NCBI GenBank assembly: GCA_026396065.1
Contig: JAPLXO010000011.1
Location: 10,748-74,747 of the forward strand
DNA length: 64,000 bases
Source: Candidatus Nomurabacteria bacterium
GTDB lineage: Bacteria; Patescibacteriota; Minisyncoccia; Phycocordibacterales; UBA9973
Direction of reading: 5' to 3'
Of this stretch, positions 5,666-24,509 are shown one piece after another (position 1 is the stretch's first letter; each line of letters begins with the position of its first letter). The position numbers were made by a program, and so were the translations under genes. The notes beneath the pieces are model-generated. The model was not told where the DNA came from. It saw only the letters and a list, made by a program, of their open reading frames with translations, and ran no database searches.

Positions 5666-5780
5666 CCCCACCCCTGACCCCTCCCCATTTTTTATAAAAA
5701 TAGAGAGGGGAATTTGGATTTCTCCCTTCTCTAAAATCTTCAAATTTTAGAGAAGGGTTGGGGATGAGGATGGGTGAGGT
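5666..5780. repeat. Intergenic repeat element A: C4-5 tract block (G-quadruplex-capable on minus strand), hairpins, and GGGTTGGGGATGAGGATGGGTGAGGT box
   Basis: cccccacccctgacccctcccc at 5666-5687; gggttggggatgaggatgggtgaggt at 5755-5780; related boxes recur at 20326-20425 and 23776-23816. Confidence 0.6.
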
Positions 5781-5786
5781 TATTAA

Positions 5787-5840
5787 AATAAAAATTGTTA
5801 ACAAACTCAGCGATAGCAGAAAATGTTAACAATTTTTATT
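5787..5840. terminator. Perfect 17-bp inverted repeat (aataaaaattgttaaca / tgttaacaatttttatt) overlapping the stop of the minus-strand PaaX-like gene; likely bidirectional terminator
   Basis: Read directly; arms are exact reverse complements with a 20-nt loop. Confidence 0.55.
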
Positions 5841-8637: not shown

Positions 8638-8644
8638 AAACTAA

Positions 8645-8676
8645 CAAAAAAAAGCTCAAAAGAGCTTTTTTTTGTT
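8645..8676 (+). terminator. Rho-independent terminator after dnaK
   Basis: aaagctc-aaa-agagcttt plus T8. Confidence 0.7.
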
Positions 8677-8701
8677 TTTAGTAACTGATATAATAAAACC
8701 T

Positions 8702-10978
8702 ATGGAAGATATTGTAATACCTGAAAATAAAGACATGACCTATCTTGGTCAGACTACTTTTCGTAACAAAAATGTTTTATTTGGAATAAAACGCAAAGAT
8801 CGTCGTCAGCACTGTTATTTGCTCGGAAAATCAGGTACTGGTAAATCTGCTCTCATGACAAATATGGTTTTGCAAAACATCATTAATGGTGATGGTGTTT
8901 GTGTTGTCGATCCACACGGAGAACTTGTAGAAAGTATTGTATCAGCTATTCCAGCTCATCGTTTAAAAGATGTTATTTATTTTAATCCTGCTGACACTGA
9001 TTATCATATTGGTTTTAACGTTTTAGAGTTATTAGATCCTCGTTACAAACATCTTGTCGCCTCAGGATTGATGGGAATTTTCACAAAAATTTGGGCGAAT
9101 GCATGGAGTGCTAGAATGGAATACATTTTAAATAATTGTATTTTGGCTTTACTCGATACACCAGGTACTACACTTCTTGGAATTCCTAGAATGCTCGTCG
9201 ACAAAGATTATCGTCAGAAAATAATTACAAATTTGAAAGATCCAGTCATTAAAGCTTTTTGGATTCATGAATATGAAGCTTGGCAAGATAAATTTCGAAA
9301 TGAAGCTATTGCTCCGATTCAAAATAAAGTCGGACAATTTCTTTCTACTTCCATTATTCGTAATGTCGTAGGGCAATCAAAAAGTACAATTGATCTTTTT
9401 CAAGTAATGAATGAAGGAAAGATTTTTTTGGTGAATGTTTCCAAGGGACGTATCGGTGAAGATAACTCTGCACTTCTCGGAGGTATGCTTATTACAAAAA
9501 TTCAGCTCGCTGCAATGGAGCGTGTGCGTATTCCAGAAGAAGAACGTAAAGACTTTTACCTGTATGTCGACGAATTCCAAAATTTCGTAACAGATGCTTT
9601 TGCTAGTATTCTTTCAGAAGCTCGTAAATATCGTTTAAATCTTACTATAGCTCACCAGTACACAGCTCAGCTTGTCACTGCCAATGGTTCCGCTGTGCGT
9701 GATGCTGTATTCGGCAACGTAGGGACTATGATTATTTTCCGTGTAGGTGCTGACGATGCTGAATTCTTAGAAAAAGAATTTGAACCAGAATTCATGGCTA
9801 CAGATATTGTGAACTTGCCAAACTATCGAATTTATTTAAAATTGATGATTGATGGTATTACGAGTAGACCTTTTTCTGCTAAGACACTTGCACCGATGAA
9901 TAAAAACAGTAAGGTAAATACTGAGGAAGAAGTGATAAAGTCTTCAAGAACTCTGTATGGAAGATCGAAAGAAGTCGTTGAATCAGAAATAAATTCTTGG
10001 AGTGGAATGTCTTTGGGAGACATAGTACCTCCAGGTGGCAATGCTGGTGCAGATGTAGAAAAATTCCCTGTAATTTGTTCAAATTGTATGAAAGAAACTA
10101 CCGTGCCATTCAAGCCAGAAGAAGGACGCGCTGTATATTGTAAAGAGTGTATTGCTAAAATGAAGACAGGCGAGTTGAAGCCTACAAAAGGATCAGCACG
10201 TCAAATAAAATACGATGAAGAAACATTTTTCAAACCTCTTGCCGATCTAGGTATTGAATTTACTTCAAAAGAAGCTCCACCAAAAGTAATACCAAAGCCA
10301 TACATGCCACCAGTATCAAAACCAGGAATTTTTGGGACTGTTAAAAAAGTCTTTCAAAATACTGTTGGAGCAAAACCTCCATCTCCAATTTCAAATATAC
10401 CAAAACCAATTTCTCCAATTACTACTACTAATGTTAATGTTCCAGTTCCACCAAAACCTCCTATAAATATTTTTAAACCACCAACTCCTTCTCTTAATAT
10501 TCCAACACCGGTAATACCAACACCTACTCCACCAGTTAAACCTATTATTTCTACTACTCCAATTGAGTCACAAAAACCTCAAACTGTAGTTGAAAAACCA
10601 AAAGAAAATACAGCACTTAAAGATTTGTTAAATAAAGCCTTGGCACCAAAGCCAATTACACCAGTAGTACCACCTATACAGCCAGTTGTTCCAGAAATAA
10701 AAAAAGTTGAACCAGAACCAATTTCTTTAGCTTCTTTAAAAAATCCAACAATTGCAACTCCTATTTCACAAAATAAAGATAGATCTGCGAGTGCTGAAAA
10801 TATGAATAAGTTAAAAGAATTTGTAGCAAAAATTGCAGAACCTCTTAAAGCAGAAGAAATAAAAAAAGAGGAACAAATTCCTACACAACCTCCAGTCACA
10901 CCTGCACCTACTCCGACGATACAAAAAACAACAAAAGAAGTTCCAGAAGATGTATTAAGGAAAATTTTAGAAGAATAA
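8702..10978 (+). CDS. VirD4/TraG/TraD-like (FtsK-HerA superfamily) P-loop ATPase with C-terminal CxxC-CxxC zinc ribbon and ~250-aa Pro/Thr-rich low-complexity tail
   Basis: Walker A LLGKSGTGKS; Walker B FYLYVDEFQNF; EARKYRLNLTIAHQYTAQL resembles the TraG-D_C/VirD4 motif (...RGYGI.L.LI.Q...QL). Zinc ribbon CSNC...x...YCKEC. No N-terminal TM helices. The ORF track starts at a TTG (8672) inside the dnaK terminator, so the first ATG (8702) is preferred. Paralog of 20448-21920. Confidence 0.6.
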   Translation: MEDIVIPENKDMTYLGQTTFRNKNVLFGIKRKDRRQHCYLLGKSGTGKSALMTNMVLQNIINGDGVCVVDPHGELVESIVSAIPAHRLKDVIYFNPADTDYHIGFNVLELLDPRYKHLVASGLMGIFTKIWANAWSARMEYILNNCILALLDTPGTTLLGIPRMLVDKDYRQKIITNLKDPVIKAFWIHEYEAWQDKFRNEAIAPIQNKVGQFLSTSIIRNVVGQSKSTIDLFQVMNEGKIFLVNVSKGRIGEDNSALLGGMLITKIQLAAMERVRIPEEERKDFYLYVDEFQNFVTDAFASILSEARKYRLNLTIAHQYTAQLVTANGSAVRDAVFGNVGTMIIFRVGADDAEFLEKEFEPEFMATDIVNLPNYRIYLKLMIDGITSRPFSAKTLAPMNKNSKVNTEEEVIKSSRTLYGRSKEVVESEINSWSGMSLGDIVPPGGNAGADVEKFPVICSNCMKETTVPFKPEEGRAVYCKECIAKMKTGELKPTKGSARQIKYDEETFFKPLADLGIEFTSKEAPPKVIPKPYMPPVSKPGIFGTVKKVFQNTVGAKPPSPISNIPKPISPITTTNVNVPVPPKPPINIFKPPTPSLNIPTPVIPTPTPPVKPIISTTPIESQKPQTVVEKPKENTALKDLLNKALAPKPITPVVPPIQPVVPEIKKVEPEPISLASLKNPTIATPISQNKDRSASAENMNKLKEFVAKIAEPLKAEEIKKEEQIPTQPPVTPAPTPTIQKTTKEVPEDVLRKILEE

Positions 10979-11021: not shown

Positions 11022-11336
11022 TTGCAAAATCACATGTTTTGGAATAAAAATACAAATATACATACAGAAAGTACAGAAGAATTTTTTGACGACGAAAGTT
11101 TTAAAGAAATAAAGATGACCTTTATTGGTCGCGTGGTTACTATTATTATTGCTTCACTTTCATTGATCGCCGCACTTGCTTGGGAGGAAACACTTCACGA
11201 TTTATTCAGAGAATTTTTCACTAGTAGTGAATCAATACAAGGTAAACTACTTTATGCAATATTGGTGACTCTGCTTACTGTCATTGTTTCTGTTTTCGTC
11301 GGCCGAAGATTCCTTAAAAAAGCACGAAGGAAATAA
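11022..11336 (+). CDS. Small hypothetical membrane protein (two predicted TM helices)
   Basis: 104-aa ORF; hydrophobic stretches IGRVVTIIIASLSLIAALA and LLYAILVTLLTVIVSVFVG; between ATPase and paralog array. Confidence 0.4.
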   Translation: MQNHMFWNKNTNIHTESTEEFFDDESFKEIKMTFIGRVVTIIIASLSLIAALAWEETLHDLFREFFTSSESIQGKLLYAILVTLLTVIVSVFVGRRFLKKARRK

Positions 11337-11380: not shown

Positions 11381-13135
11381 ATGAATCCAGAAATTAAAAA
11401 TTGTCAGAACTGTAAAAAAGAATTTACGATAGAAACGGAAGATTTTTCTTTTTATAAAAAAATGAAAGTTCCACCACCGACATTTTGTCCAGAGTGTAGA
11501 ATGCAAAGAAGATTGGCTTGGAGAAATGAGCGTGGACTATATCGTAGAAATAGTGATGTTCCAGGGAAAGAAAACGAACAGATAATTTCTACTTATCCAC
11601 CTACTATAAATGTAAAAGTATACGACAATGATTATTGGTGGAGTGATAATTGGGAACCTACTGATTATGCTATGGAGTATGATTTTTCACGACCTTTTTT
11701 TGAACAATTTCGGGAACTTTTGTCTAAAGTGCCATTAATAAGTTTTGCTGATAGTAAAGGAGTAAATAATCAATATTGTAATTATATTACTGAAGGTAAG
11801 AATTGTTATATGCTTTCTGCTGCATGGAGTTGTGAAGATTGTTTACTTGGAAATAGAAATTCTTTTTGCAAGGAAACTGTTGATTCTTATGTGTGTCATA
11901 AAACGGAATTTTCTTATGGAAATATTTATTGTGGAGAATCATATAAATTATTTTATAGTGAACATTCGTACAATTGTACTGATTCATATTTTCTTTACGA
12001 CTGCCGAAACTGTATTGATTGTTTTATGTGTTATGGTTTGAGAAATAAATCTTACTGTATTGAAAATGTTCAATACACACAAGAAGAATATAGAGAAAAA
12101 ATGAAAGATATAAATTTGGGTAATTATGAAACTGTTGAAAATAATAAAACTTATTTTAATAAATTTAAACAAAATGCAGTTCGTAAGTACGCCAATAATA
12201 CAAAATGTATAAATGTGACGGGAGATAATGTCGAAAATGCAAAAGATGCACAATATTGTTTTGATTTACCAGGAGGAATTGAAAATATTAAATACTGTAA
12301 TTGGGGTACGTATGGATTAAAAGATTCTTATGATACAGGGCCGGGGACAGGTGGTAAATCAGAAATGACCTATGAAGGAGTTAGTATTGGTGTAGCAAAT
12401 GCTAATTGTTCTTTTGGTGCAATTGTTTGGAATTCTAGTAATGTACAATATGCTTTTAATTGTTACTCTACGAATAATTGTTTTGGTGTCGTCAGTTTGA
12501 AAAGTAAATCTTACTGTATTTTAAATAAGCAGTATACCAAAGAAGAATATAATGAATTGCTACCGAAAGTCATTCAACATATGAATGATATGCCTTATGT
12601 AGATAAAAAAGGACGTGTGTATAAATATGGGGAGCTTTTTCCAATAGAACTTTCTCCTTATGCATACAATGGTGCAACGGTACAAGATTTTTTCCCTCTA
12701 GATAAAGCCACTGCAGTAGGAGAGGGTTTTAATTGGCAAGATGAAACGGAGAGGAATTATGAGGTTACTTTACCAGCCTCAAGTATTCCTTTAAATATTG
12801 AAGAAGTTAAAAATGATATACTGTCGCAAACTTTAGGTTGCATAAACGCTTCAGGAGATGTACAGGGTTGCACGAAGGCATTTAGGTTAGTTTCAAAAGA
12901 ATTAGATTTTTATAAAAGATTTAATATTCCTATTCCACATTTTTGTCCAAATTGTAGACACGCGGAGCGTGTCAGTAGACGCAACCCTATGAAACTTTGG
13001 CACAGACAATGCATGTGTGATAAAACAAATCATGGTCATGCAGCTAAGTGTGAAGTTGAATTTGAGACTGCATATGCTCCAGATAGACCAGAGATCGTCT
13101 ATTGTGAAAAGTGTTACCAACAGGAGATTTATTAG
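11381..13135 (+). CDS. Cysteine-rich zinc-ribbon protein, paralog 1 of unrecognised family (584 aa)
   Basis: N-terminal CQNC...FY.K.KVPPPTFCPECR zinc ribbon; two internal copies of C..C.DCF.C..LRN..YCI.N.QY..EEY; C-terminal FY.R.N.P.P.FCP.CRH.ER...NP.KLW.RQC.C...RPEIVYCEKCYQQEIY. Confidence 0.7.
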   Translation: MNPEIKNCQNCKKEFTIETEDFSFYKKMKVPPPTFCPECRMQRRLAWRNERGLYRRNSDVPGKENEQIISTYPPTINVKVYDNDYWWSDNWEPTDYAMEYDFSRPFFEQFRELLSKVPLISFADSKGVNNQYCNYITEGKNCYMLSAAWSCEDCLLGNRNSFCKETVDSYVCHKTEFSYGNIYCGESYKLFYSEHSYNCTDSYFLYDCRNCIDCFMCYGLRNKSYCIENVQYTQEEYREKMKDINLGNYETVENNKTYFNKFKQNAVRKYANNTKCINVTGDNVENAKDAQYCFDLPGGIENIKYCNWGTYGLKDSYDTGPGTGGKSEMTYEGVSIGVANANCSFGAIVWNSSNVQYAFNCYSTNNCFGVVSLKSKSYCILNKQYTKEEYNELLPKVIQHMNDMPYVDKKGRVYKYGELFPIELSPYAYNGATVQDFFPLDKATAVGEGFNWQDETERNYEVTLPASSIPLNIEEVKNDILSQTLGCINASGDVQGCTKAFRLVSKELDFYKRFNIPIPHFCPNCRHAERVSRRNPMKLWHRQCMCDKTNHGHAAKCEVEFETAYAPDRPEIVYCEKCYQQEIY

Positions 13136-13137
13136 TT

Positions 13138-14886
13138 ATGGAATCAAAAACACCAAAATCAGACGTACTTATAGATGAAATCCTTGCAGGGCTTGTTCCA
13201 CATACACGTATATGTAAATGGAAAGGCGAGCATCAGCATTGTGAAGGCAAATTTGAAATTACGAATGAAGATATTTCGTTTCTTAAAATGCTTCGAGTTC
13301 CTGCTCCAAATTTCTGTCCTACTTGTAGAAGAATTAAAAGACAATCTTTTATGGGTTTCGCGCAACTTTTTAAGAGGAAATGTGATGTAGTTGGACACGA
13401 TGAATCTATCATCTCTGTTTTTTCTAAAGAATGCCCTTTCCCAGTTGTTGATTATAAGTATTTTGCTTCTGATGAATTTGATTCTTTTTTATATCGTAAA
13501 AATTATGAAGAGAATACAAGTCCAATGGAACAACTTTTTTCTCTAAGGAAAATTTTTCCAATGCCTTCATTTTTAAATCGTGATTCTTCGAGTATAAATA
13601 GTGATTATTCAAATGGAGGTAGAGATAATAAAAACTGTTATTACACTAGTGGTTGCTATACGGTAGAAAATGCTTGGTATTCAAATATGCTCGTGAAGAG
13701 CAAAGAAATAATGGATTGCCGAACTGTAAAACATTCAGATCATGTATATTCGAGTCTTTATTCAGACCATCTATATAAATCTTATTTTACTTATTTTTCC
13801 AATAGCTGTACAGATAGTATGTTTCTTTTTGATTGTAGAAATTGTATAAACTGTTTTGGTTGTGTAAATTTGCGTAATGCTAAATATTGTATTTGGAATG
13901 AACAATATAGTAAAGAAGATTATGAACAATTTATAAAATCAAATCTACCATTCTCTAGAGATTTTTTAGAAGAAAATAAGCAAAAATTTTGGCAACTTGT
14001 AAAATCACTTCCAATAAATGCTTCTAGAAATATGACTGTAAAAAACAATGTAAATGGTGTGATGAATGTGAATTCGAATAATTTATATGATGTCACAGAA
14101 TCTAGTAAAGCAGAAAATGTACGTCATGCAGATGGCGCTCTTACACATCAAAATTCTATGGATTTACTATACTCGGGCGGATCTAGTTTGCTTTACGGTA
14201 CTATAAATATCGGTTCTCAATCGAGCAACGTTCGATTTTCAGTTTCATGTAAATTTTCTACTAACTCAGAATTTATTTTTAATTCAAATAATCTAGATAA
14301 TTGTTTTATGTGTTTTGGTTTGCAGCATAAATCTTATTGTATTTTAAACAAACAATATAGCCCAGATGAATATTTTAAAATAATAGATGAAATAAAATCT
14401 GACATGATAAAAAGGGGAGAATACGACGACGGACTAAGTTTTGAATTTTCTGCCCAAGCATATAATTTTTCATTAGCCCAGATTTCTTTTCCTCTTACAG
14501 AACAAGAAATAATAAAATTAGGTGGTTATATGGCTGAAGAGCCAGAAAGTAATGCCGGAGATATGAAAATTTTATCAAAAGAAGAAGTGCCACAAACAAT
14601 AGATGAAGTATCAGATGACATTGTAGATTATGCAATTAAATGTGAGGTTACTGCTAGGCCTTTCAGGATTACTCCTTCAGAATTACAATTTTATAGAATA
14701 ATGAAATTACCACTTCCTACTATACATCCGATAGTCAGAATGAGAAAATATTATGAACTGGCACCAATCGGTAAAAGCTACCCTGCTGTTTGTTCTAAAT
14801 GTGGTAAATCATTTCGATCATTATTTGATCCTAAAGACGGTTATAAGCTATACTGTGAAGATTGTTATAAACAAGAAGTATATTAA
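13138..14886 (+). CDS. Cysteine-rich zinc-ribbon protein, paralog 2 (583 aa)
   Basis: Same architecture; starts 2 nt after the paralog 1 stop; ends ...YCEDCYKQEVY. Confidence 0.7.
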   Translation: MESKTPKSDVLIDEILAGLVPHTRICKWKGEHQHCEGKFEITNEDISFLKMLRVPAPNFCPTCRRIKRQSFMGFAQLFKRKCDVVGHDESIISVFSKECPFPVVDYKYFASDEFDSFLYRKNYEENTSPMEQLFSLRKIFPMPSFLNRDSSSINSDYSNGGRDNKNCYYTSGCYTVENAWYSNMLVKSKEIMDCRTVKHSDHVYSSLYSDHLYKSYFTYFSNSCTDSMFLFDCRNCINCFGCVNLRNAKYCIWNEQYSKEDYEQFIKSNLPFSRDFLEENKQKFWQLVKSLPINASRNMTVKNNVNGVMNVNSNNLYDVTESSKAENVRHADGALTHQNSMDLLYSGGSSLLYGTINIGSQSSNVRFSVSCKFSTNSEFIFNSNNLDNCFMCFGLQHKSYCILNKQYSPDEYFKIIDEIKSDMIKRGEYDDGLSFEFSAQAYNFSLAQISFPLTEQEIIKLGGYMAEEPESNAGDMKILSKEEVPQTIDEVSDDIVDYAIKCEVTARPFRITPSELQFYRIMKLPLPTIHPIVRMRKYYELAPIGKSYPAVCSKCGKSFRSLFDPKDGYKLYCEDCYKQEVY

Positions 14887-14888
14887 TT

Positions 14889-14951
14889 ATGGAAACAAAA
14901 AACTGTCAAAATTGTCCCGATTTTTTAAAAATCGAGGATCCACGATTCTAA
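14889..14951 (+). pseudogene. Truncated ancestral N-terminal leader of paralog 3 (METKNCQNCPDFLKIEDPRF*), interrupted by a ~100-nt palindromic insert
   Basis: 20-codon ORF begins like the other paralogs (METKNCQNC). It then runs into the inserted element and a stop. ATGA overlap with the restart codon at 14951. Confidence 0.5.
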
Positions 14952-16684
14952 TGAATTATAATCGGGATAAAAAAGATATGGAACATCAATCAGAAAGTAA
15001 AATATGTCAGAATTGTAAGACTTCGTTTATTATAAAAGAAGAAGATTTTAATTTTTATGAAAAAATCAAAGTTCCTCCACCGACATTTTGCCCGGAGTGT
15101 AGAAACATACAACGTTTTGCTACTAGAAATTCAAAATCTTTATATAAACGTGCTTGTGATGGCTGTAAAAAAGAAGTTATATCACGATTTTCACCGCATA
15201 ATCCAGCAGTTATGTATTGCCGAGATTGTTGGTGGAGTGATAATTGGGACGCACTTTCTTTTGCAAAAGATTACGATTTTTCTAAAACTTTTTTTGAACA
15301 ATTTAAAGAACTTCTTTTCTCTGTACCACATGTATCACTTTTAAATAATAATATGCATGAAAGTGATTACTCAAACATGGAATCAGATGATAAAAGATGC
15401 TATCTAACCTTTGGAGGACATTATAATGAAGATTGTGCTTTTACTGAATATAGTCTTTGGGGACGTGAAGTATATGATTCTTATTGGTCATTAAAATCGG
15501 AACAATGTCATGGATGTTCTCTTGTTGAGCGTTGCTATCGCACTTATGGATCTGAACAATGTTATGACTGTCTCGATACACTTTTTTCTTTTGATTGTAC
15601 AAATTGTTCAAATATTATTGGTTGTATAGGGTTGAGAAATAAATCATATTGTATTTTTAATCAACAGTATTCTAAAGAAGAATTTTTTGAAATTAAAGAA
15701 AATTTAAATATTGGTTCATATAGAGCTCGAAAAGAACTAGAAGAGAAATCAAAAACATTTTGGCTTAGTTTCCCACATAAAGAGAGTTTGATAACTCATT
15801 CAAATGATTGTACTGGAAATAGTATAGTTAATTCAAAAAACTCAAAAAACATTTGGCAGGCAGATAGTGTTGAGGATTCCAAATATAGTTATATCGCAGC
15901 TTGGAATAAAAACTGTTATGACGAAACATCGGCTGGTAATGACGAGCTTTGTTATCTGTGCGCAAATGGTGGTGGTTTATATAATTCTATCGCTATATTA
16001 TATTCTTTTGGTTCAAATGTAGATAAGAAAAAACAAAGTTTTAATTGTGGTTATTCTTATACTGTTCTCAACTGCACTGATTGTTTTGGTTGTGTAGGAA
16101 TTCGTAATAAACAATATTGTATTTTGAACAAACAATATACCAAAGAAGAGTATTTTGAACTTTTAGAAAAAATTAAAAAAAGTATGTTGGAAAATCCTTT
16201 CCAATCACAAAAGACAGGACAAGTATTTAGCTATGGGGATTTCTTTCCATCAGAGCATTCACTTTTTGCTTACAATGAGACAGTAGCACAAGATTTATAT
16301 CCAAAAGATAAAGATTCTGCAGAGGCTCAAGGTTTTGTTTGGCGAGAAGAACCTGAACCACACTACGACTTTAATCATTATCAAATTCCTGATGATATAA
16401 AAGACGTAGATGATTCTATTTTGTCTCAAGTGTTAAAATGTGAAGAAAGTGGTAAGGGTTATAAAATAGCTCGATCTGAGTTAGCATTTTATCAAAAAAT
16501 GCAGATTCCAATACCTCGTATTTCGCCACTTATACGTATTCGAGACCGTGTACGTGCATTGTTACCATTTAAACTTTTTGATAGGCAATGTCAGAAATGT
16601 AATAAGGATATAAAAACTCCTTATTCTCCAGAACGCCCAGAAATTATCTACTGTGAAAAGTGTTACCAGCAGGAAGTATATTAA
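14951..16684 (+). CDS. Cysteine-rich zinc-ribbon protein, paralog 3 (577 aa from restart Met)
   Basis: MNYNRDKKDMEHQSESKICQNCKTSFII...; same family architecture; ends RPEIIYCEKCYQQEVY. Confidence 0.65.
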   Translation: MNYNRDKKDMEHQSESKICQNCKTSFIIKEEDFNFYEKIKVPPPTFCPECRNIQRFATRNSKSLYKRACDGCKKEVISRFSPHNPAVMYCRDCWWSDNWDALSFAKDYDFSKTFFEQFKELLFSVPHVSLLNNNMHESDYSNMESDDKRCYLTFGGHYNEDCAFTEYSLWGREVYDSYWSLKSEQCHGCSLVERCYRTYGSEQCYDCLDTLFSFDCTNCSNIIGCIGLRNKSYCIFNQQYSKEEFFEIKENLNIGSYRARKELEEKSKTFWLSFPHKESLITHSNDCTGNSIVNSKNSKNIWQADSVEDSKYSYIAAWNKNCYDETSAGNDELCYLCANGGGLYNSIAILYSFGSNVDKKKQSFNCGYSYTVLNCTDCFGCVGIRNKQYCILNKQYTKEEYFELLEKIKKSMLENPFQSQKTGQVFSYGDFFPSEHSLFAYNETVAQDLYPKDKDSAEAQGFVWREEPEPHYDFNHYQIPDDIKDVDDSILSQVLKCEESGKGYKIARSELAFYQKMQIPIPRISPLIRIRDRVRALLPFKLFDRQCQKCNKDIKTPYSPERPEIIYCEKCYQQEVY

Positions 16685-16686
16685 TT

Positions 16687-18459
16687 ATGGAAACACGAAA
16701 TTGTCAAAATTGTAAAAAAGATTTCACTATAGAGGTGGAGGATTTTAATTTTTATCAAAAGATAAAAGTTCCACCACCGACGTGGTGCCCAGAGTGTCGA
16801 CTTATTCGTCGTCTTGCTTATCGTGAAGAACGGTCTTTTTATAAAGATGAATGTGATAAATGCGGTCATGAAATAGTAAGTTTATTTGCACCAGAATCTG
16901 ATCTTCCTGTCTTTTGTTCTCCTTGTTGGTGGAGTGATAGTTGGGATGCTACATCTTATGGAAAAGACTACGATTTTTCTCGTCCATTTTTTGAGCAATT
17001 ATATCAATTAATGAAAGTCGTACCAAATCAGGCTACAAATACACGAAATTGTACTGATTGTAAATATTCTCATGGCAATATACGTTGTAAAAATTGTACT
17101 TTTGTTTTTGCTGGTATACAGTCTATTAATTGCTATTATTGTTCAACACCGATTTTCACAAAAGATTCTTTTGATTCAAGCTTTATTATAAATGCTGATC
17201 ATGTATATGAAGGTGTACATATAGGGGGAATATATAATTCAAAATTTATTTATTTTTCTGATGAATGCTTGGACTGTTCTTTTATTTTTAATTGTGTTGG
17301 ATGTTCAGATTGTTTTGGTTGTGTAAATTTAAGAAATCAAAAATATTGTATTTTTAATATTCAATATTCTAAAGAAGAATATAAAAAAGAAATTTTAAAA
17401 TGGGATCTAGGTAGTTATGAAAATTTACAAAAAGCACGAGAACTTTTTATGAAACTTTACCATAAAACACCAAGACGTTTTGCATTAATTTCAAATTCTA
17501 CAAATTGTATTGGTGATGATATTCAAAATACTAAAAATTGTAAAATATGTTTTTCTGCTACTCATGGAGTAGAAAATTCTAAATTTATTTTTCAATGTGG
17601 ATTATTGTTGAAAGATAGTTATGATGTGACACTAGGCGGAGATACTTCTGAGCTTGCATATGAAGTAAATGGTAGCACTCAATCACAAAAAAGTTTTTTT
17701 TGTAGGGGTAGTAATAACTTAAGAGATGTTGAATATTCAGATAATATATACAATGGATCCAATCTTTTTGGTTGCGTAAAATTGAGACATAAAAAATATT
17801 GTATTTTAAATAAACAATATACAAAAGAAGAATATGAAGATTTAATACCAAAAATAAAACAGCATATGATAGATATGCCATATGTTGATAAAAAAGGACG
17901 AGTCTATAAATATGGGGAATTTTTTCCAGTAGAAATAGCTTTATTTGCTTACAATGAAACCTGGGCACATCAATATTTTCCTATTACAAAAGAAAAAGCA
18001 ATAGAACAAGGTTACAATTGGCGTGATCCGATAGAAAGGGATTATAAAATAACTATTAACATTGGGAATTTGCATAATCATATTAAAGATGTGACTGATT
18101 CTATTTTAGATGAAGTGATAGAATGTGAACATAATGGAAAAAACTGTAATCAACAGTGCACTACTGCTTTTAGAATTTTACCAAATGAATTGGGTTTTTA
18201 TAGACAAATGAATTTGGCTTTGCCTAGAATATGCCCAAACTGTCGTCATTATGAAAGATTAAAAAAAACAAATCCACCAAAATTATGGCATGGAAAATGT
18301 ATGTGCGATGGTGTAGAATCAAGTAATAAAGAATATAGAAATACTATTAAGCATTTGCATGGAGAGGAGCCTTGCCAAAATGAATTTGAAACTTCTATAA
18401 GTAGTGAAAGAAAAGAAATAGTTTATTGTGAAAAATGTTATCAGGATGAATTTATATGA
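16687..18459 (+). CDS. Cysteine-rich zinc-ribbon protein, paralog 4 (590 aa)
   Basis: METRNCQNCKKDFTIEVEDFNFYQKIKVPPPTWCPECR...; ends KEIVYCEKCYQDEFI; first ATG is 16687 (the ORF-track start 16660 is an alternative codon). Confidence 0.7.
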   Translation: METRNCQNCKKDFTIEVEDFNFYQKIKVPPPTWCPECRLIRRLAYREERSFYKDECDKCGHEIVSLFAPESDLPVFCSPCWWSDSWDATSYGKDYDFSRPFFEQLYQLMKVVPNQATNTRNCTDCKYSHGNIRCKNCTFVFAGIQSINCYYCSTPIFTKDSFDSSFIINADHVYEGVHIGGIYNSKFIYFSDECLDCSFIFNCVGCSDCFGCVNLRNQKYCIFNIQYSKEEYKKEILKWDLGSYENLQKARELFMKLYHKTPRRFALISNSTNCIGDDIQNTKNCKICFSATHGVENSKFIFQCGLLLKDSYDVTLGGDTSELAYEVNGSTQSQKSFFCRGSNNLRDVEYSDNIYNGSNLFGCVKLRHKKYCILNKQYTKEEYEDLIPKIKQHMIDMPYVDKKGRVYKYGEFFPVEIALFAYNETWAHQYFPITKEKAIEQGYNWRDPIERDYKITINIGNLHNHIKDVTDSILDEVIECEHNGKNCNQQCTTAFRILPNELGFYRQMNLALPRICPNCRHYERLKKTNPPKLWHGKCMCDGVESSNKEYRNTIKHLHGEEPCQNEFETSISSERKEIVYCEKCYQDEFI

Positions 18460-18572
18460 ATAAAAAAACAAAATTAAAAATAGAATCTTTAAAATATTTA
18501 ATTCCAATCTTGTTAAAAACAATTAAATTTCGAATTAAAGTTTGGCGACGTAAAAACTTTTAAATAAGATAT

Positions 18573-20315
18573 ATGGAAACACGAAACTGTCAAAATTGTA
18601 AAAAAGATTTCACTATAGAGGTGGAGGATTTTAATTTTTATCAAAAGATAAAAGTTCCAGCGCCGACTTTTTGCCCAGATTGTAGAACAATACGTAGACT
18701 ATGTTGGAGAAATGAAATGTCTCTTTTTAAGAGAAAATGTGATGCTCCTGGACATGAAGAAATGCTCATTACATGTTTTCCTCCAGAAGAAAAACTCACT
18801 GTATATGATTCTACATCTTGGTGGGGTGATTCTTGGGATGCAATACAATATGGAAAAGAATATGATTTTTCCAAATCATTCTTTGAACAGTGGAGAGATT
18901 TAAGAAATAGTATTCCACTTCAGGCACTTTCAAACATAAAAGCGACTAACAGTGATTATTGTAATGTGGCAGAGGGCAGTAAAGATAGCTATATGTGTTC
19001 GGGTACTTGGAAAATAGAAAGAACTCTTTACTCTAATAGAGTTTCAGAAACAAAAGATTCCTCCGACTTGTATATAGTGTATCGTTCTGAGCTTTGTTAT
19101 GAAGATGTAATATGTTCTGATTGTTACCATTTAATGTACTCTTTAGATTGTAAAAGTTGTGTTGACTCATTTTTTCTCTATGATTGTGTGGGTTGCACAG
19201 ACTGTTTTGGTTGTAGTAATTTACGCAATAAATCATATTGCATGTGGAACGAGCAATTGTCTAGAGAAGAATATTTTCGTCATTTAGCAGAATATAATTT
19301 AAAAAATCATGAGACTATATCGATTTTAAAAAATAAATTTAAAGAAATTTGTTTGCAATCTTTACATCGTTTTTCACTTCAAATAAAATCAGTAAATTCT
19401 ACTGGTGACAATTTAGAAGGTACAAAAAATTGCAAAGTGTGTTTTGATGTTTCTGGAAAAATGGAAGATTTGAAATATGTGCATTGGACAGCTATTAGTG
19501 CAAAAGACGCTTATGATTCTGGCCCTGGTATTGGACAAGTTGAACTTGCATATGAATCCTTTGACACTGGAATAGGTAATTTCCGTAGTCTTTTTACGAG
19601 TGTTGTATATAGTTGTAACGATGTTGAATATTCATTTAATTGTCATGGTTCTTCGAATTTATTTGGTTGTATTGGAATTAGAAATAAAAAATACTGTATT
19701 TTAAATAAAGAATATACAAAAGGGGAATATGAAATATTATTGCCAAAAATTAAAGAGCAAATGATGCAAGTTCCATATATAGATAAAAAAGGAATTAATT
19801 ATAGATACGGTGAATTTTTTCCAGCAGAACTTTCTACTTTTTGTTATAACGAAACACAAGCACAAGATTATTTTCCAATAGATAAGGAATATGCATCTAA
19901 AATGGGATATCGTTGGCGTGATAAAAAGATAAGTGAATATCACATCACTATTGAATCAAAAGATCTTCCAGATTCTCTTGATGACGTTACAGATTCAATC
20001 ACTAATGAAATTATTGGATGTGAAAATAAAGATAAGATGAGTAATTATTGTAGAGGAGCATATAAAATAACTATCGATGAGCTGAATTTATATCGCAAGC
20101 TTGGAGTACCATTACCAAGACTTTGTTTTCTTTGTCGGCATGAAACTAGATTAAAAATGCGTAATCCAATGAAGCTTTGGAATAGACAGTGTATGTGTGA
20201 AAAAGAAAATCATCAACATAGTGGTAAATGTGAAATTACATTTGAAACATCATACGATCCTAATAGACCAGAAATAGTATATTGTGAAAAATGCTATCAA
20301 GCCGAGGTTTATTAG
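18573..20315 (+). CDS. Cysteine-rich zinc-ribbon protein, paralog 5 (580 aa)
   Basis: METRNCQNCKKDFTIEVEDFNFYQKIKVPAPTFCPDCR...; C-terminus NPMKLWNRQCMCEKENHQHSGKCEITFETSYDPNRPEIVYCEKCYQAEVY nearly identical to paralog 1. Confidence 0.7.
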   Translation: METRNCQNCKKDFTIEVEDFNFYQKIKVPAPTFCPDCRTIRRLCWRNEMSLFKRKCDAPGHEEMLITCFPPEEKLTVYDSTSWWGDSWDAIQYGKEYDFSKSFFEQWRDLRNSIPLQALSNIKATNSDYCNVAEGSKDSYMCSGTWKIERTLYSNRVSETKDSSDLYIVYRSELCYEDVICSDCYHLMYSLDCKSCVDSFFLYDCVGCTDCFGCSNLRNKSYCMWNEQLSREEYFRHLAEYNLKNHETISILKNKFKEICLQSLHRFSLQIKSVNSTGDNLEGTKNCKVCFDVSGKMEDLKYVHWTAISAKDAYDSGPGIGQVELAYESFDTGIGNFRSLFTSVVYSCNDVEYSFNCHGSSNLFGCIGIRNKKYCILNKEYTKGEYEILLPKIKEQMMQVPYIDKKGINYRYGEFFPAELSTFCYNETQAQDYFPIDKEYASKMGYRWRDKKISEYHITIESKDLPDSLDDVTDSITNEIIGCENKDKMSNYCRGAYKITIDELNLYRKLGVPLPRLCFLCRHETRLKMRNPMKLWNRQCMCEKENHQHSGKCEITFETSYDPNRPEIVYCEKCYQAEVY

Positions 20316-20447: not shown

Positions 20448-21920
20448 ATGGGAAAGCCGAATCGAGTTCAGATAATCAAATATGGTCCACCACCACCAGA
20501 GCTTCCGGTGTTTGGAAAGGTGCCTCCTGAAGAGGTTTCTTTTATTGGACGTACGAATTACGTCGCAGCACTTGAAGAAAAGAAATTTATTTTCGGAATT
20601 AAGCGCGTTGACCGCCGAAGACATTTATATATCATTGGAAAGTCTGGGGTTGGAAAAACAAAGCTTCTAGAATTGATGCTTCGCCAAGATGTGACATATG
20701 GCCACGGTCTTTGTCTTATCGATCCACACGGTGACGTTATCGATGCAATGCTCGATTATATTCCAAAAGAGCGTGTTGAAGACGTTTGTATTATTGACCC
20801 TGCTGATATTGATTTCCCAGCATCTTTCAATCCTTTGGCAAATGTCGACCCAATGTTCAAATTTCAATTGACTCAAGGGTTAATCGAAGTTTTCCAAAAA
20901 CAATTCGGTGCAAACTGGACACCACGTCTCGAGCACGTTTTTCGTTTTACTTGTCTCGCATTACTCGATTATCCGTATGCTACGATGCGCGGAATGATCT
21001 CGATGTTGACAGATAGAAATTATCGTCAGAAAGTCGTGGAATATATTACAGACGACATGGTGAAAAGATTCTTCGCTATCGAATTCGCGGACTGGTCTGA
21101 AAAATTCGATACTGACGCTATTATTCCACTTGTTAATAAACTAGGTCAATTTCTTTCTGATCCCTTGCTTCGTAATATTTTCGGACAGAAGCAAAATAAA
21201 ATAGATATTAGTAAATTGATGAATGAACAAAAAATAATTTTTATTAATTTGTCTAAAGGGCGCCTCGGTGAAGAAAATTCGTCTTTCCTTGGTTCGATGT
21301 TTTTGACTAAAATTAAACAGGCCGGAATGGAGCGCGCTAGTATTGCCGAACGTGACCGTAAAGATTTTTATATTTATGTGGACGAGTTCCAAAACGTAGT
21401 GACACAAACTTTCGAAAACATTTTGTCGGAAGCTCGAAAATACGGTTTGAACCTTACTATGGCTCATCAGTATGTCGGTCAAATTATTCCAAAAGTTCAC
21501 CAAGCTGTACTTGGTAATACAGGTAGTGTCATTTGTTTTCGTGTAGGTGGAGAAGATGCTGTAAAATTGAAACCCGAATTTGAGCCATTATTCGGAGTGA
21601 AAGACATGATCAACCTCGCCGTAGCAGAATTTTATATCAAAATGACGATTGATGGAGAGTCTTACGATCCATTTTCTGCAGAGACACTTCGTGTATTACC
21701 TCCAAATCATCCTTCATATCGACAAGAAATTATAAATGCATCACGTAGAAAATATTCAATTCCAAAAGACGATGCGCAAAAATTGATTCAAGAGGAAGAA
21801 GCTACAATTATTCGAAGTGCAGAAGAAAAAGCTATTATTTCAGGAAAAGGCAAAAATGAAGTTGACGAAAATGAAAAGTCTGCAAAACCAGTCGCTAAAG
21901 AAGCTGAACCTATGATATAA
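20448..21920 (+). CDS. VirD4/TraG/TraD-like (FtsK-HerA superfamily) P-loop ATPase, paralog 2 (490 aa; no zinc ribbon or Pro-rich tail)
   Basis: Walker A IIGKSGVGKT; Walker B FYIYVDEFQNV; EARKYGLNLTMAHQYVGQI; collinear with 8702-10978 over ~450 aa. Confidence 0.6.
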   Translation: MGKPNRVQIIKYGPPPPELPVFGKVPPEEVSFIGRTNYVAALEEKKFIFGIKRVDRRRHLYIIGKSGVGKTKLLELMLRQDVTYGHGLCLIDPHGDVIDAMLDYIPKERVEDVCIIDPADIDFPASFNPLANVDPMFKFQLTQGLIEVFQKQFGANWTPRLEHVFRFTCLALLDYPYATMRGMISMLTDRNYRQKVVEYITDDMVKRFFAIEFADWSEKFDTDAIIPLVNKLGQFLSDPLLRNIFGQKQNKIDISKLMNEQKIIFINLSKGRLGEENSSFLGSMFLTKIKQAGMERASIAERDRKDFYIYVDEFQNVVTQTFENILSEARKYGLNLTMAHQYVGQIIPKVHQAVLGNTGSVICFRVGGEDAVKLKPEFEPLFGVKDMINLAVAEFYIKMTIDGESYDPFSAETLRVLPPNHPSYRQEIINASRRKYSIPKDDAQKLIQEEEATIIRSAEEKAIISGKGKNEVDENEKSAKPVAKEAEPMI

Positions 21921-21967: not shown

Positions 21968-22012
21968 ATGAATTCTGAAACAAAAAATTGCCAAAATTGT
22001 CCCGATTTTTAA
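21968..22012 (+). pseudogene. Truncated ancestral N-terminal leader of paralog 6 (MNSETKNCQNCPDF*), interrupted by the same insert as paralog 3
   Basis: Read directly; the same CQNC then cccgattttt... junction as at 14910. Confidence 0.5.
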
Positions 22013-22035
22013 AAAATCGAGGATCCACGATTCTA

Positions 22036-23775
22036 ATGAATTATAATCGGGATAAAAAAGATATGGAACATCAATCAGAAAGTAAAATATGTCAGAATTG
22101 TAAGACTTCGTTTATTATAGAACAAGAAGATTTTAATTTTTATGAAAAGATGAAAGTTCCTGCACCGACATGGTGTCCTGAATGTCGAATGGCACGTAGA
22201 TTCCTATTTATGAATACTTGGAATCTATATAGGCGAAATTGTGAAAAATGTGGGGAAAGTACACTTTCAATGTTTTCAGAAGATAAACCACATAAGGTTT
22301 TTTGTTTACCTTGTTGGTGGTCGGATGATTGGGATGGTACTGAGTATGCTATCAATTACGACCCCTCTCGTTCTTTTTTAGAACAGATGAAAGAGCTGGA
22401 ACTCAGAACACCTTGGATGGCTAATACTATGATGTATACAATGAATGTAAATAGCCCGTATTGTAATGCTACTGGTCCAGTAAAGAATTGCTACATGCTT
22501 TTTTGGGCAGATTATTGTGAAAATTCTTTTTACTCATCTTATTTGAATACTTTAAAAGATTCTATAGATTGTTATCGGGTAGCTCATAGTGAATTGTGCT
22601 ATGAAGGCACTGGTTTGAATAAATGTTACAGAACTTTCTTTTCGGAAGAGTGTGATTCTTGTACCGATACGTGGTTTTCAAGAGCTTGTTCTGGTTTAGT
22701 AAATTGTTTTGGTTGTATAAATTTAAGAAATAAAAATTATTGTATATTCAATGAACAATATTCTCAGGAAGATTATTTTAAAAAAGTAAAAGAATTTGAT
22801 CTAATATCTCATACGTCATTAGAAAAAATAAAAAAAGATGTTTTAGTGTTTTGGAGTAAATATCCAAGGCGATTTTATAACGGTAATGCGTTAAACAAAA
22901 ACGTTAGTGGTGATTATATTTATGAATCTAAAAATGCACAGAATTGTTTTATGGTTTCTGGGGCTGAAGATTGTAAATTTACTCAATTTGTAAGTATTCC
23001 AAAAGCCAAAGATTGTTATGATAATACTGGTTGGGGAGATGGTTCAGAAAGAATTTATGAGTCTACTGTTGTCGGCCTCGGAGCAAGTAATGTAAAATTT
23101 TCTAATGAATGCTGGCCTAATGCAATGAATACAGAATACTCTATCTATGCTATAGGTGGATGTAAGGATATTTTTGGATGTGTCAATTTAAAGAAAAAAC
23201 AATATTGTATTTTAAATAAACAGTATTCAAAGGAAGAATATGAAAAGTTAAAAGAAAAAATTATTAAAGATATGAATATAAATACTTTTATAGACTCAAA
23301 AAATAGAGTTTATAAATATGGTGATTCATTACCTATTGAATTGTCGCCATTTTCTTACAATGAATCAAATGCTGGTAAGTTTTTACCAATTACAAAAGAA
23401 AAAGCTTTAGAGCAAGGTTTCACTTGGTCAGAAGGAAAGGTGAATGAATATAAGATTACAGCCAAGGCGTCTGATTTACCAGATACAATCTCATATACTA
23501 CAGATGAGATACTAAACGACGTGTTTGAATGTGCTTCTTGTCAAAGAGCTTATAAATTTACTCTAGGTGAATTGAATTTAATGAGAAGACTTTCTTTACC
23601 ATTACCACATAAATGTTTTCATTGTCGTCAAGAATTTCGTTTTTCTAGATCTAATCAGGCTAGATTATACGATAGAAATTACATGAAATGCGGAGTAGAT
23701 TTAAAAACTTCTTATAATCCAGATAACACAGAAATAGTTTATTGTGAAAAATGCTATCAGCAGGAAGTATATTAG
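22036..23775 (+). CDS. Cysteine-rich zinc-ribbon protein, paralog 6 (579 aa from restart Met)
   Basis: MNYNRDKKDMEHQSESKICQNCKTSFII...; ends NTEIVYCEKCYQQEVY; the first 28 residues are encoded by nucleotides identical to paralog 3. Confidence 0.65.
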   Translation: MNYNRDKKDMEHQSESKICQNCKTSFIIEQEDFNFYEKMKVPAPTWCPECRMARRFLFMNTWNLYRRNCEKCGESTLSMFSEDKPHKVFCLPCWWSDDWDGTEYAINYDPSRSFLEQMKELELRTPWMANTMMYTMNVNSPYCNATGPVKNCYMLFWADYCENSFYSSYLNTLKDSIDCYRVAHSELCYEGTGLNKCYRTFFSEECDSCTDTWFSRACSGLVNCFGCINLRNKNYCIFNEQYSQEDYFKKVKEFDLISHTSLEKIKKDVLVFWSKYPRRFYNGNALNKNVSGDYIYESKNAQNCFMVSGAEDCKFTQFVSIPKAKDCYDNTGWGDGSERIYESTVVGLGASNVKFSNECWPNAMNTEYSIYAIGGCKDIFGCVNLKKKQYCILNKQYSKEEYEKLKEKIIKDMNINTFIDSKNRVYKYGDSLPIELSPFSYNESNAGKFLPITKEKALEQGFTWSEGKVNEYKITAKASDLPDTISYTTDEILNDVFECASCQRAYKFTLGELNLMRRLSLPLPHKCFHCRQEFRFSRSNQARLYDRNYMKCGVDLKTSYNPDNTEIVYCEKCYQQEVY

Positions 23776-23855: not shown

Positions 23856-24509
23856 ATGAGTAAAGATTACTATGAAGTTTTGGGAGTTAATAAAAGTGCT
23901 ACAAAAGACGAATTGAAAACGGCTTTTCGTAAGCTTGCGCACAAACATCATCCAGACAAGAATAAAGGGGATGATAAAAAATTTAAAGAAATAAATGAAG
24001 CGTATCAAACACTTTCAGATGACACAAAGCGTGCACAATACGATAGATTTGGTGCAGGTTATCAAAATATGGGTGGCGGACATCAACATGGTGGATTTTC
24101 TGGTGGAGGTTTTGAAGGATTTGACTTTTCTGGTTTTCAGCAAGGTGGACAAGAATTTGATTTTGGAAACTTGAATGATATATTTTCAGATTTTTTTACA
24201 GGAGGCAGAGGTGGTTTTCACACCAGAACTCCTCGTGGCCGAGACATGCAAACAGAAATTGAAATTTCTTTTATAGATGCTATTTTAGGTGTTGAAAAAA
24301 ATATTGTTATTACTGGGCATAAAGAAATAAAAATAAGTATTCCGTCTGGTATACGTGATGGCCAAACTTTAAAAATGACAGGAATGGGTGAAGTTATAAA
24401 AGATGGAAAAGCAGGAGATTTATATATAAATGTTCATGTTAAAGTTCCACACAAGATATCTAAAAAAGCTCGCGAACTTCTTGAAGAATTAAAAAAAGAG
24501 GGAATTTAG
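23856..24509 (+). CDS. dnaJ: DnaJ-like co-chaperone, minimal form (J-domain plus G/F region plus partial C-terminal domain; no CxxCxGxG zinc-finger domain)
   Basis: DYYEVLGV...HPDKN J-domain with HPD; Gly/Phe-rich linker; [13 protein letters not shown]-terminal segment; only 217 aa and no Cys repeats. Confidence 0.8.

Follow-up and report, generated by a model that had tools for sequence, protein, structure and literature searches.

The window analyzed here, a stretch of 64,000 nucleotides (nt) from Candidatus Nomurabacteria bacterium (GCA_026396065.1, contig JAPLXO010000011.1, positions 10,748-74,747, forward strand), encodes seven related cysteine-rich proteins of 577-590 amino acids (aa), named paralogs 1 to 7, which can be aligned end to end at 31-46% identity. 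Paralogs 1-5 lie between the genes of two ATPases related to type IV coupling proteins (T4CP), ATPase1 and ATPase2, in the neighborhood of the Hsp70 chaperone genes. An earlier reading of the same DNA, based on the letters alone (the sequence-only reading), had listed seven open reading frames (ORFs) sharing one architecture, and all of them were found at the following positions.

11381-13135, + strand: paralog 1, 584 aa, 33 Cys; second N-terminal finger lost, C-terminal fingers intact, CxxCxxCxxC coil present
13138-14886, + strand: paralog 2, 582 aa, 24 Cys; most divergent copy
14951-16684, + strand: paralog 3, 577 aa, 33 Cys; both N-terminal fingers kept, C-terminal treble-clef Cys set lost
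16687-18459, + strand: paralog 4, 590 aa, 38 Cys; all four terminal fingers
18573-20315, + strand: paralog 5, 580 aa, 36 Cys
22036-23775, + strand: paralog 6, 579 aa, 34 Cys; between ATPase2 and dnaJ
55934-57691, + strand: paralog 7, 585 aa, 37 Cys; dispersed copy between a D-Ala-D-Ala carboxypeptidase gene and mraY/ftsW/murG

The alignment of the seven copies, which had been suggested as a means of defining the Cys spacing, contains 69 invariant columns and revealed that the Cys sets of individual fingers are lost as a whole. Each protein contains 24-38 Cys (4.1-6.4%), fewer than the roughly 40 estimated initially, in an aromatic-rich composition. Neither signal-peptide-like nor transmembrane (TM)-like hydrophobic stretches were detected in any paralog (maximum Kyte-Doolittle 19-mer value of at most 1.3), in agreement with the previous proposal of intracellular proteins in which a duplicated module is capped by homologous zinc-finger units. 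Paralog 5 was used as reference for residue numbering and for both AlphaFold2 (AF2) models, and its segments are given below.

18573-18857, + strand: N-terminal unit, residues 1-95; treble-clef finger C6/C9/C34/C37, degenerate second finger, WWxDxWD segment
18858-19307, + strand: module 1, residues 96-245; helix, about nine predicted 12-residue beta-solenoid coils with a Cys/Ser ladder, LRNKxYCIxNxQYSKEEY hairpin/helix
19185-19214, + strand: all-cysteine coil of module 1, C205-x2-C208-x2-C211-x2-C214; candidate lumenal metal site
19308-19757, + strand: module 2, residues 246-395; homologous predicted beta-solenoid with a more degenerate Cys ladder
19758-20012, + strand: conserved acidic mid domain, residues 396-480; PYVDKKG..YKYGEFFP.ELS.F.YNET.AQDYFP
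20013-20312, + strand: C-terminal unit, residues 481-580; treble-clef-like finger C483/C493/C518/C521 and a CxxC-x17-CxxC-type finger ending PEIVYCEKCYQAEVY

Internal homology was evaluated with hhalign on a 59-sequence alignment of the paralogs and database homologues. Module 1 (approximately residues 105-241) was matched to module 2 (254-393) with a probability of 99.9% (E 2.8e-31), and the N-terminal unit (7-83) to the C-terminal unit (491-575) with a probability of 99.2% (E 3.5e-19), supporting both the internal duplication and the homologous ends that the sequence-only reading had described; the duplicated module measures about 140-150 aa rather than about 200. Controls in which a module was compared with a terminus gave probabilities of 1-2%, and because the claimed homologies reach 99% the architecture is not an alignment artefact of low-complexity Cys/Asn-rich sequence, the outcome that the earlier reading had named as refuting it. 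Altogether, we are highly confident that the seven proteins represent one family composed of a treble-clef and a CxxC-x17-CxxC zinc finger, two consecutive modules predicted to be beta-solenoids, an acidic alpha/beta domain and, at the C-terminus, a treble-clef-like and a second CxxC-x17-CxxC finger. 

Conservation is unevenly distributed along the protein. The consensus residue reaches a frequency of 0.6-0.8 in three kinds of region, namely the fingers, the ends of the solenoids and the larger part of the mid domain (residues 401-440), and falls to about 0.3-0.5 in residues 141-200, 241-310 and 331-360. Module 1 is acidic (pI 4.5-5.9), the C-terminal units are mostly basic (pI 7.8-8.7 in six of the seven paralogs) and the N-terminal units vary (pI 4.95-8.95). 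The C-terminal tail is not invariant as previously thought, given that paralog 2 ends in ...GYKLYCEDCYKQEVY and paralog 4 in ...EIVYCEKCYQDEFI; likewise, the C-termini of paralogs 1 and 5 follow the trend noticed before, being more alike (73% identity in the final 30 residues, 53% in the C-terminal unit as a whole) than the modules (39-44%), without being near-identical.

In accordance with the initial impression of an unrecognized family, the core of about 400 residues has no match in Pfam, NCBIfam, PADLOC or PHROGs, apart from one weak PHROGs match of the paralogs (phrog_15341, E 8e-5) that was judged uninformative, and the mid domain of paralog 5 matched neither a fold nor a family. A sequence search of the PDB with the family profile returned no structure for the core; at the C-terminal finger there was a marginal resemblance to LIM domains (E 0.04). 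Literature searches yielded no account of the family.

Terminal zinc fingers and module cysteines

The N-terminal units match PF13451 (zf_Tbcl) at 15.2-20.0 bits (E 7e-4 to 0.02), below the gathering threshold of 24 bits, and the second N-terminal finger and the C-terminal tail are matched by PF23477 (zf_Tbcl_2) and TIGR04272 (CxxC-x17-CxxC). With PF23477, paralog 2 scored 28.1 bits, above the gathering score of 27, and paralogs 3, 4 and 6 scored 17.9-24.3, below it; all paralogs were under the TIGR04272 threshold of 36 bits. The expression C..C.{15,19}C..C was found at the C-terminus of paralogs 2 and 3 and in the N-terminal unit of paralogs 3, 4 and 6, as well as in ATPase1, and the paralogs without this canonical spacing contain an insertion between the first two ligands. 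The secondary structure of the fingers in the AF2 model, a knuckle hairpin followed by a helix, is consistent with treble clefs: in the N-terminal one, strands 2-5 and 12-15 flank C6/C9 and C34/C37 open the helix 35-43. The last 35 residues constitute a zinc-finger domain according to the PF23477 matches, and were modeled with a predicted local distance difference test (pLDDT) value of 81-89.

Co-occurrence of cysteines was computed over 429 homologues. The residues C59/C79/C82 of the second N-terminal finger, present in 36% of these proteins, co-occur with r 0.96-1.0, and C493/C518/C521 of the C-terminal treble clef, present in 85%, with r 0.89-0.95. The same all-or-none loss is evident inside the window, where the C-terminal treble-clef set is missing from paralogs 2 and 3 (paralog 2 retaining the canonical CxxC-x17-CxxC tail) and the second N-terminal finger from paralogs 1, 2, 5 and 7. 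Thus, the C..C...C..CWWSD finger that had been said to occur often is present in three of the seven copies (paralogs 3, 4 and 6). Since the finger cysteines are gained and lost as complete sets, they behave as metal-ligand sets. Zinc binding by domains of the CxxC-x17-CxxC type has been evidenced by inductively coupled plasma mass spectrometry in small proteins of Methanosarcina mazei (PMC12704099). From these sequence patterns it is quite likely that the terminal cysteines form structural Zn(Cys)4 sites. All four fingers of the family match the PF23477, TIGR04272 or PF13451 models, with the canonical spacing in several copies; however, the described members of PF23477 and PF13451 are small stand-alone proteins or C-terminal appendages, whereas here two pairs of fingers cap a core of 400 residues to which neither family extends.

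The cysteines of the modules behave differently. In the same set of homologues they hardly co-occur (r<0.4) and exchange mainly with Ser, and due to this free exchange and lack of co-occurrence they do not appear to be obligate ligands. Of the multi-zinc or iron-sulfur (Fe-S) binding predicted in the sequence-only reading, zinc binding is supported for the terminal fingers, in view of the treble-clef matches and the co-loss of ligand sets; a ligand role does not appear to extend to most module cysteines. Counted modulo 3, all module cysteines share a single phase. In 34 consecutive triplets of module 1, C/S/T/A/G/V make up 76% of the in-phase residues (Cys 34%, Ser 23%), charged residues 7% and aromatic residues 1%, and the two out-of-phase positions are polar or aromatic. 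The Fourier power at period 3 amounts to 22.8 for Cys and 16.1 for hydropathy, against an expectation of about 1, and in module 1 hydropathy peaks secondarily at period 12. This module written in rows of 12 gives nine coils with small residues at positions 1, 4, 7 and 10 and an enrichment of Asn, Asp and Tyr at the exposed positions. Most module cysteines would then be core-packing residues, unlike metal ligands. The sequence-based solenoid prediction and the fold search were concordant, and the predicted model could be superposed on PDB 1EZG, suggesting that each module probably adopts a narrow right-handed beta-solenoid fold of about nine 12-residue coils, of the Tenebrio antifreeze type.

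The hallmark of the Tenebrio molitor antifreeze protein (TmAFP) is a 12-residue coil with every third residue pointing inward and the repeat TCTxSxxCxxAx. The structure of TmAFP (PDB 1EZG) and the family modules have in common the 12-residue coils, the every-third-residue (Cys/Ser/Ala-type) packing into a very narrow lumen and the period-3/period-12 signature; the two share 9% sequence identity, with no sign of common ancestry. TmAFP is secreted, its lumenal cysteines form disulfides and it exposes a TxT ice-binding face, whereas the family lacks a signal peptide, is presumably cytoplasmic, and has its solenoid duplicated, capped by zinc fingers and rich in Asn, Asp and Tyr at exposed positions. 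Searching the paralogs for a TxT/TCT ice-binding ladder yielded no TCT motif and at most one T.T per paralog. Because this ladder and a secretion signal are missing, the family represents a fold analogue and not an antifreeze protein. The CAP/RP2/TBCC "CARP" domains, the MinC C-terminal domain, bactofilin and the pentapeptide-repeat DNA mimics have no sequence relationship to the family, differ in coil length and lack the Cys ladder and the zinc caps.

One coil departs from the general behavior of the modules. In module 1, C205/C208/C211/C214 place Cys at all four inward positions, and all four are conserved in 71% of the homologues and at least three in 93%; at the equivalent coil of module 2 the full quartet is present in 9% and at least three in 44%. 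This CxxCxxCxxC coil may be the sole strong candidate for a metal site within the modules, with a predicted lumenal location. A motif scan detected no ferredoxin (CxxCxxCxxxCP), radical-SAM (CxxxCxxC) or DnaJ-type (C..C.G.G) motif in any paralog, and no Pfam Fe-S family matched them.

Distribution and age of the family

A profile search of 5.8 billion proteins retrieved at least 7,908 significant matches, all named "hypothetical protein" and none with a Pfam domain. An exhaustive search of 1.84 billion cluster representatives gave 5,174 matches at E<=1e-3, and 2,226 clusters at 50% identity were matched at E<=1e-30, nearly all of them full-length and of 550-600 aa; in contigs representing one genome per species, more than 590 loci were matched. 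Every interpretable organism name belonged to Paceibacteria/Parcubacteria (Nomura-, Kaiser-, Staskawicz-, Giovannoni-, Jorgensen-, Sungi-, Lipton- and Niyogibacteria, or "Minisyncoccia"), and the family is apparently restricted to Paceibacteria. Two family-bearing contigs are labeled otherwise, L079 (JAMPXW010000002.1) as "Burkholderiales" and L021 (34.5% GC) as "Gammaproteobacteria". Both are probably mis-binned contigs of the candidate phyla radiation in public metagenome-assembled genomes, L079 because of its 30% GC and Paceibacteria gene order. A phage origin was ruled out, as 2.9 million viral contigs contained one partial match; the family is cellular.

When domain-level hidden Markov models were run against 1.3 Mb of related DNA, 151 of the 199 matches contained all seven segments in complete order, and the other 48 were truncated at contig ends or split, no different architecture being found. 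Some family genes of other genomes are divided into two adjacent ORFs, one for the N-terminal unit and module 1 and the other from module 2 to the C-terminal unit (L066:498-2336 and L032:5786-7533); such cases may reflect pseudogenization, errors in sequencing or a naturally split form.

Proteins encoded in other genomes share 62-79% identity with paralogs 1-5, which among themselves do not exceed 46%; the duplications are old, given that the closest relatives of these copies lie in other genomes, and each copy is under purifying selection. This argues for a set of sub-functionalized, non-redundant paralogs rather than an arms-race family. A direct repeat of 213 nt with 93% identity (14892-15104, + strand, and 21977-22189) covers, in paralogs 3 and 6, the upstream region and about 50 codons at the 5' end, the two proteins beginning with MNYNRDKKDMEHQSESKICQNCKTSFII, and indicates recent, occasional gene conversion within an otherwise ancient set of paralogs.

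ATPases and the Hsp70 operon

In the window the genes follow the order grpE, a PaaX-like gene, dnaK, ATPase1, DUF5654, paralogs 1-5, ATPase2, paralog 6 and dnaJ, separated by short gaps and encoded, with the exception of the PaaX-like gene, on the + strand. The genes that accompany the paralogs are the following.

4770-5378, + strand: grpE; upstream end of the conserved chaperone neighborhood
5836-6342, - strand: PaaX_M (Cas2-like)/winged helix-turn-helix regulator-like gene, divergent from dnaK
6742-8637, + strand: dnaK (Hsp70), directly upstream of ATPase1
8672-10978, + strand: ATPase1; T4CP-like (TrwB/TraD/HerA-clade) P-loop ATPase, Walker A GKSGTGKS, Walker B LYVDEF
11022-11336, + strand: DUF5654, small protein with two TM segments, between ATPase1 and paralog 1
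20448-21920, + strand: ATPase2; T4CP-like, Walker A GKSGVGKT, Walker B IYVDEF, no zinc finger
23856-24509, + strand: dnaJ, directly downstream of paralog 6

The ATPases match the Pfam families TrwB_AAD_bind, T4SS-DNA_transf, TraG-D_C and DUF87, with one weak match to CedD, and both are far below all NCBIfam cut-offs, including those of TraD/VirD4. The sequence similarity of ATPase1 to TrwB is confined to the surroundings of the P-loop. The Walker A and B motifs are intact, and no TM segment was detected in either ATPase (maximum Kyte-Doolittle 19-mer value of at most 1.13). In PADLOC the ATPases gave only weak matches, to mad8 (E 4e-15) and HerA, and the Cys-rich family gave none. The phage family phrog_5156, a profile of 824 positions, covers the whole ATPase region of ATPase1 (E 4e-65) and ATPase2 (E 2e-53); therefore, related motors exist in phages, where the Cys-rich family is not found. 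On the basis of these profile matches, both proteins are classified as distant members of the TrwB/TraD/VirD4-HerA-FtsK clade. ATPase1, whose true start may be the ATG at about 8702, contains an internal CxxC-x17-CxxC finger that passes the thresholds of both models (PF23477, 48.9 bits, E 5e-13; TIGR04272, 52.6 bits), followed by a C-terminal low-complexity tail of 270 aa (10166-10978) rich in Pro, Lys, Thr and Ile, with 52 Pro. The sequence between dnaK and ATPase1 (8643-8676) contains a hairpin that is a perfect palindrome flanked by runs of A8/T8 (AACAAAAAAAAGCTC-loop-GAGCTTTTTTTTGTT) and could be a bidirectional terminator or attenuator within the operon.

The conservation of this arrangement was examined in 79 related loci, which hold 183 family genes arranged in tandem, one to seven per run. 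The ATPase family is the sole strongly recurrent neighbor, with 53 genes in 31 loci. Of these 53 genes, 27 lie immediately beside a family gene, in every case on its strand and at a median distance of 43 nt; the other neighbors are housekeeping genes, and dnaK or dnaJ are present in only 11-12 loci. In many genomes the order dnaK, ATPase1, one or more family genes, ATPase2, occasionally a further family gene, and dnaJ recurs, sometimes with grpE and a run of family genes upstream. Neither type IV secretion system (T4SS) channel genes of the virB4/virB6 type in the 64-kb window or recurrently in the 79 loci, nor mobile-element, nuclease, recombinase or competence genes recurring across these loci, nor redox-partner genes nearby, were found. 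DUF5654 was considered as a conserved membrane anchor of the cassette and rejected, since jackhmmer finds it in the window and in none of the 79 loci.

A 2025 survey reported 5,713 VirD4-like genes in 2,918 genomes of Patescibacteria, approximately two per genome, of which only 148 are located near virB4, and its authors suggested exaptation (PMC12102498). At the background density of that survey 2-4 such genes would be expected in 1.24 Mb, and from the 53 observed we infer a more than ten-fold enrichment next to the family. The cassette plausibly accounts for orphan VirD4-like genes in Paceibacteria. The underlying idea of the sequence-only reading, a functional link between the Cys-rich proteins and VirD4-like ATPases, is strongly borne out by this conserved synteny, and functional coupling of the family to the ATPases can be considered likely.

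Regarding expression, the best promoter-like site lies upstream of dnaK, in a promoter scan that performed no better than on shuffled sequence, and no strong + strand terminator was found inside the array. No CIRCE/HrcA operator was found in the window and, for this reason, the PaaX_M-like gene, which is kept at the same position in seven related loci, may act as regulator of the chaperone operon in place of HrcA. The DnaJ of the window (217 aa) consists of a J domain, a Gly/Phe (G/F) region and a portion of the C-terminal domain, the CxxCxGxG zinc-finger domain being absent, while DnaJ at the same position in related loci has about 362 aa and four CxxCxGxG repeats.

Some additional features of the window deserve mention. 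Between grpE and the regulator gene there is an isolated fragment resembling the T-arm of a tRNA or tmRNA (5461-5477, GACGGTTCGATTCCGTC), followed in the AT-rich spacer by unusually G/C-rich inverted repeats (5660-5775). A tRNA at 5461-5477 was ruled out, as none was detected by ARAGORN or Rfam; the fragment may be what is left of an integration site. Downstream of the cassette, positions 28363-34614 (+ strand) encode a 2083-aa Rhs/Tc-toxin-like protein with SpvB, TcdB_toxin_midN, FG-GAP and RHS repeats, and the small ORF that follows (34617-35063) could be an immunity gene; together they would be a polymorphic-toxin locus in a Paceibacteria genome.

Proposed role and alternative explanations

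The explanation that we tentatively favor over the others, at somewhat less than even confidence, is that the family consists of cytoplasmic multi-zinc rods that partner exapted ATPases. According to this proposal, the proteins would be cytoplasmic rods with structural zinc caps, and each paralog would be an alternative scaffold or adaptor subunit used by the two ATPases on either side of the array, which are soluble, exapted and T4CP-like (FtsK/HerA/TraD clade). The cassette, ATPase1 followed by a variable number of family genes and ATPase2, embedded between dnaK and dnaJ, is probably co-expressed with the Hsp70 system. The conserved zinc-finger caps, of a finger type that is common to ATPase1, could bind either the ATPase itself or some shared ligand. 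Selection of different clients, either proteins or nucleic acids, may fall to the solenoid faces, which are the more variable part of the ancient paralogs. The scaffold or adaptor role in itself is a possibility on the doubtful side. A comparable gene arrangement is found in the systems of the HerA/FtsK clade (HerA-NurA, HerA-Sir2, HerA-DUF4297 and MADS mad8), in which, as here, a soluble hexamer-type P-loop ATPase is encoded beside non-enzymatic or effector partners. In contrast to these defense systems, the family has no PADLOC match, resides in a conserved housekeeping chaperone operon and not in a defense island, is present class-wide and is under purifying selection.

Several observations weigh against this explanation. 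An ATPase is absent within about 10 kb in 48 of the 79 loci and paralog 7 resides in a cell-wall gene cluster, and consequently the family can be encoded independently of the ATPases. Subfamily clustering did not map crisply onto operon position, as one large cluster dominates, and synteny shows co-inheritance and likely co-expression of the family and the ATPases, not contact. Most of the finger matches are below the Pfam gathering scores. As to the predicted fold, a known tendency of AF2 to over-predict beta-solenoids in repeat sequences, described for perfect repeats whose charged cores are implausible (PMC11795689), is a caveat here; the family modules differ from that case in having degenerate repeats and a small or Cys-rich core phase.

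Among the alternatives, the one closest to the sequence-only reading proposes that the proteins are secreted cargo, with a C-terminal tail recognized by the VirD4-like ATPases, kept unfolded and metal-free by DnaK/DnaJ, and exported through a T4SS into a host cell. The tight and conserved same-strand linkage to T4CP-like ATPases, reminiscent of the genetic coupling of relaxases and effectors to T4CPs (VirD4/TrwB/TraD), the high conservation of the C-terminus and a chaperone-operon setting that would suit unfolding-dependent export are compatible with this view, as is the wide distribution in Patescibacteria of T4SS, which are thought to be repurposed (PMC12102498). However, the tail is better described as the second knuckle of a folded CxxC-x17-CxxC finger, a type also contained in ATPase1, than as an unstructured signal; the N-terminal TM domain that canonical coupling proteins carry is missing from both ATPases, which score far below every curated cut-off and are encoded away from T4SS channel genes, of which neither the window nor the related loci provide recurrent examples, and only 148 of the 5,713 T4CP homologues of Patescibacteria are near virB4 (PMC12102498). 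In addition, relaxase or effector features are missing from the family, and a fixed architecture with orthologues at 60-80% identity across genera sets it apart from fast-evolving effectors. The VirD4-signal interpretation of the tail is thus disfavored, and export as cargo is unlikely. Slightly less improbable is a role as chaperone components, either stress-regulated zinc- or redox-sensitive holdases or co-chaperones (as Hsp33 or the zinc-finger domain of DnaJ) or DnaK clients, the linkage to the ATPases being secondary. The cassette is placed between dnaK and dnaJ or adjoining grpE in many genomes, the best promoter-like site precedes dnaK with no strong + strand terminator in the array, the DnaJ of the window lacks its own zinc-finger domain and the family is rich in Cys and Zn sites. 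Nevertheless, the paralogs contain no CxxCxGxG motif and are not similar to Hsp33 or DnaJ, dnaK/dnaJ occur in 11-12 of the 79 loci versus 31 for the ATPase, the DnaJ of related genomes retains its zinc-finger domain despite the presence of the family, and a rigid solenoid rod is not an obvious holdase.

To a comparable, low degree of probability, the family could be involved in nucleic-acid handling, with basic caps that bind DNA or RNA together with FtsK/TrwB-like DNA-translocating ATPases acting on imported DNA or the nucleoid, or with acidic solenoids that regulate the motors as DNA mimics. Treble-clef and ribbon fingers often bind nucleic acids. ATPases of the T4CP/FtsK/HerA clade are typically DNA pumps, the matches to TrwB_AAD_bind and T4SS-DNA_transf and the weak one to CedD are in line with this, and so are the mostly basic C-terminal units and the acidic module 1. 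Still, no recognized DNA- or RNA-binding family was matched, the N-terminal units are not consistently basic (pI 4.95-8.95) and no nuclease, recombinase or competence genes recur nearby. Metal storage, Fe-S binding or electron transfer through the many cysteines, including the CxxCxxCxxC coil, is suggested by the 24-38 Cys per protein and by the conservation of that coil (full quartet in 71% of the homologues), and seems very improbable in view of the free Cys/Ser exchange in the modules (r<0.4), the rarity of the full quartet in module 2 (9%), the lack of ferredoxin or radical-SAM motifs in the paralogs and of redox-partner genes nearby, and a composition with 4-6% Cys and many aromatic residues, unlike that of metallothionein. 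Finally, the AT-rich genome (32% GC) and the repeat-like modules might inflate alignment scores, and it could be argued that the similarity arises from chance alignment of low-complexity sequence or that the ORFs are not genes; this is hardly credible against thousands of full-length homologues of conserved length, the 69 invariant columns, hhalign probabilities of 99% versus 1-2% in the controls and the conserved synteny.

The building blocks of the family, treble-clef fingers and a narrow beta-solenoid, are known structural types. In contrast, the family, its core domain, its architecture and the cassette embedded among the ATPase and Hsp70 genes were found in no curated family or paper; the fold derives from prediction. 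Paceibacteria (Parcubacteria) belong to the uncultured bacteria of highest abundance, and their genomes are smaller than 1 Mb; even so, the source genome spends about 12 kb and seven genes on this one family, which is conserved across the class. With thousands of members that are now just "hypothetical", the family merits a Pfam/InterPro entry. It also gives the "orphan" VirD4-like ATPases of Patescibacteria, to which no function was assigned in PMC12102498, a concrete partner and a context in which they can be tested, and links them to the Hsp70 operon.

It is conceivable, rather than probable, that Paceibacteria possess a class-wide cytoplasmic machine, co-regulated with Hsp70, in which two exapted soluble T4CP-like ATPases work with ancient paralogous multi-zinc solenoid rods bearing a new kind of metal site, with the four Cys of one 12-residue coil coordinating a metal in the lumen. 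If true, such a machine would explain the approximately two "orphan VirD4" genes per genome of Patescibacteria. In structural terms, the family would provide the first cytoplasmic example of a cysteine-ladder beta-solenoid like that of insect antifreeze proteins, with zinc-finger caps and possibly a metal site inside the lumen.

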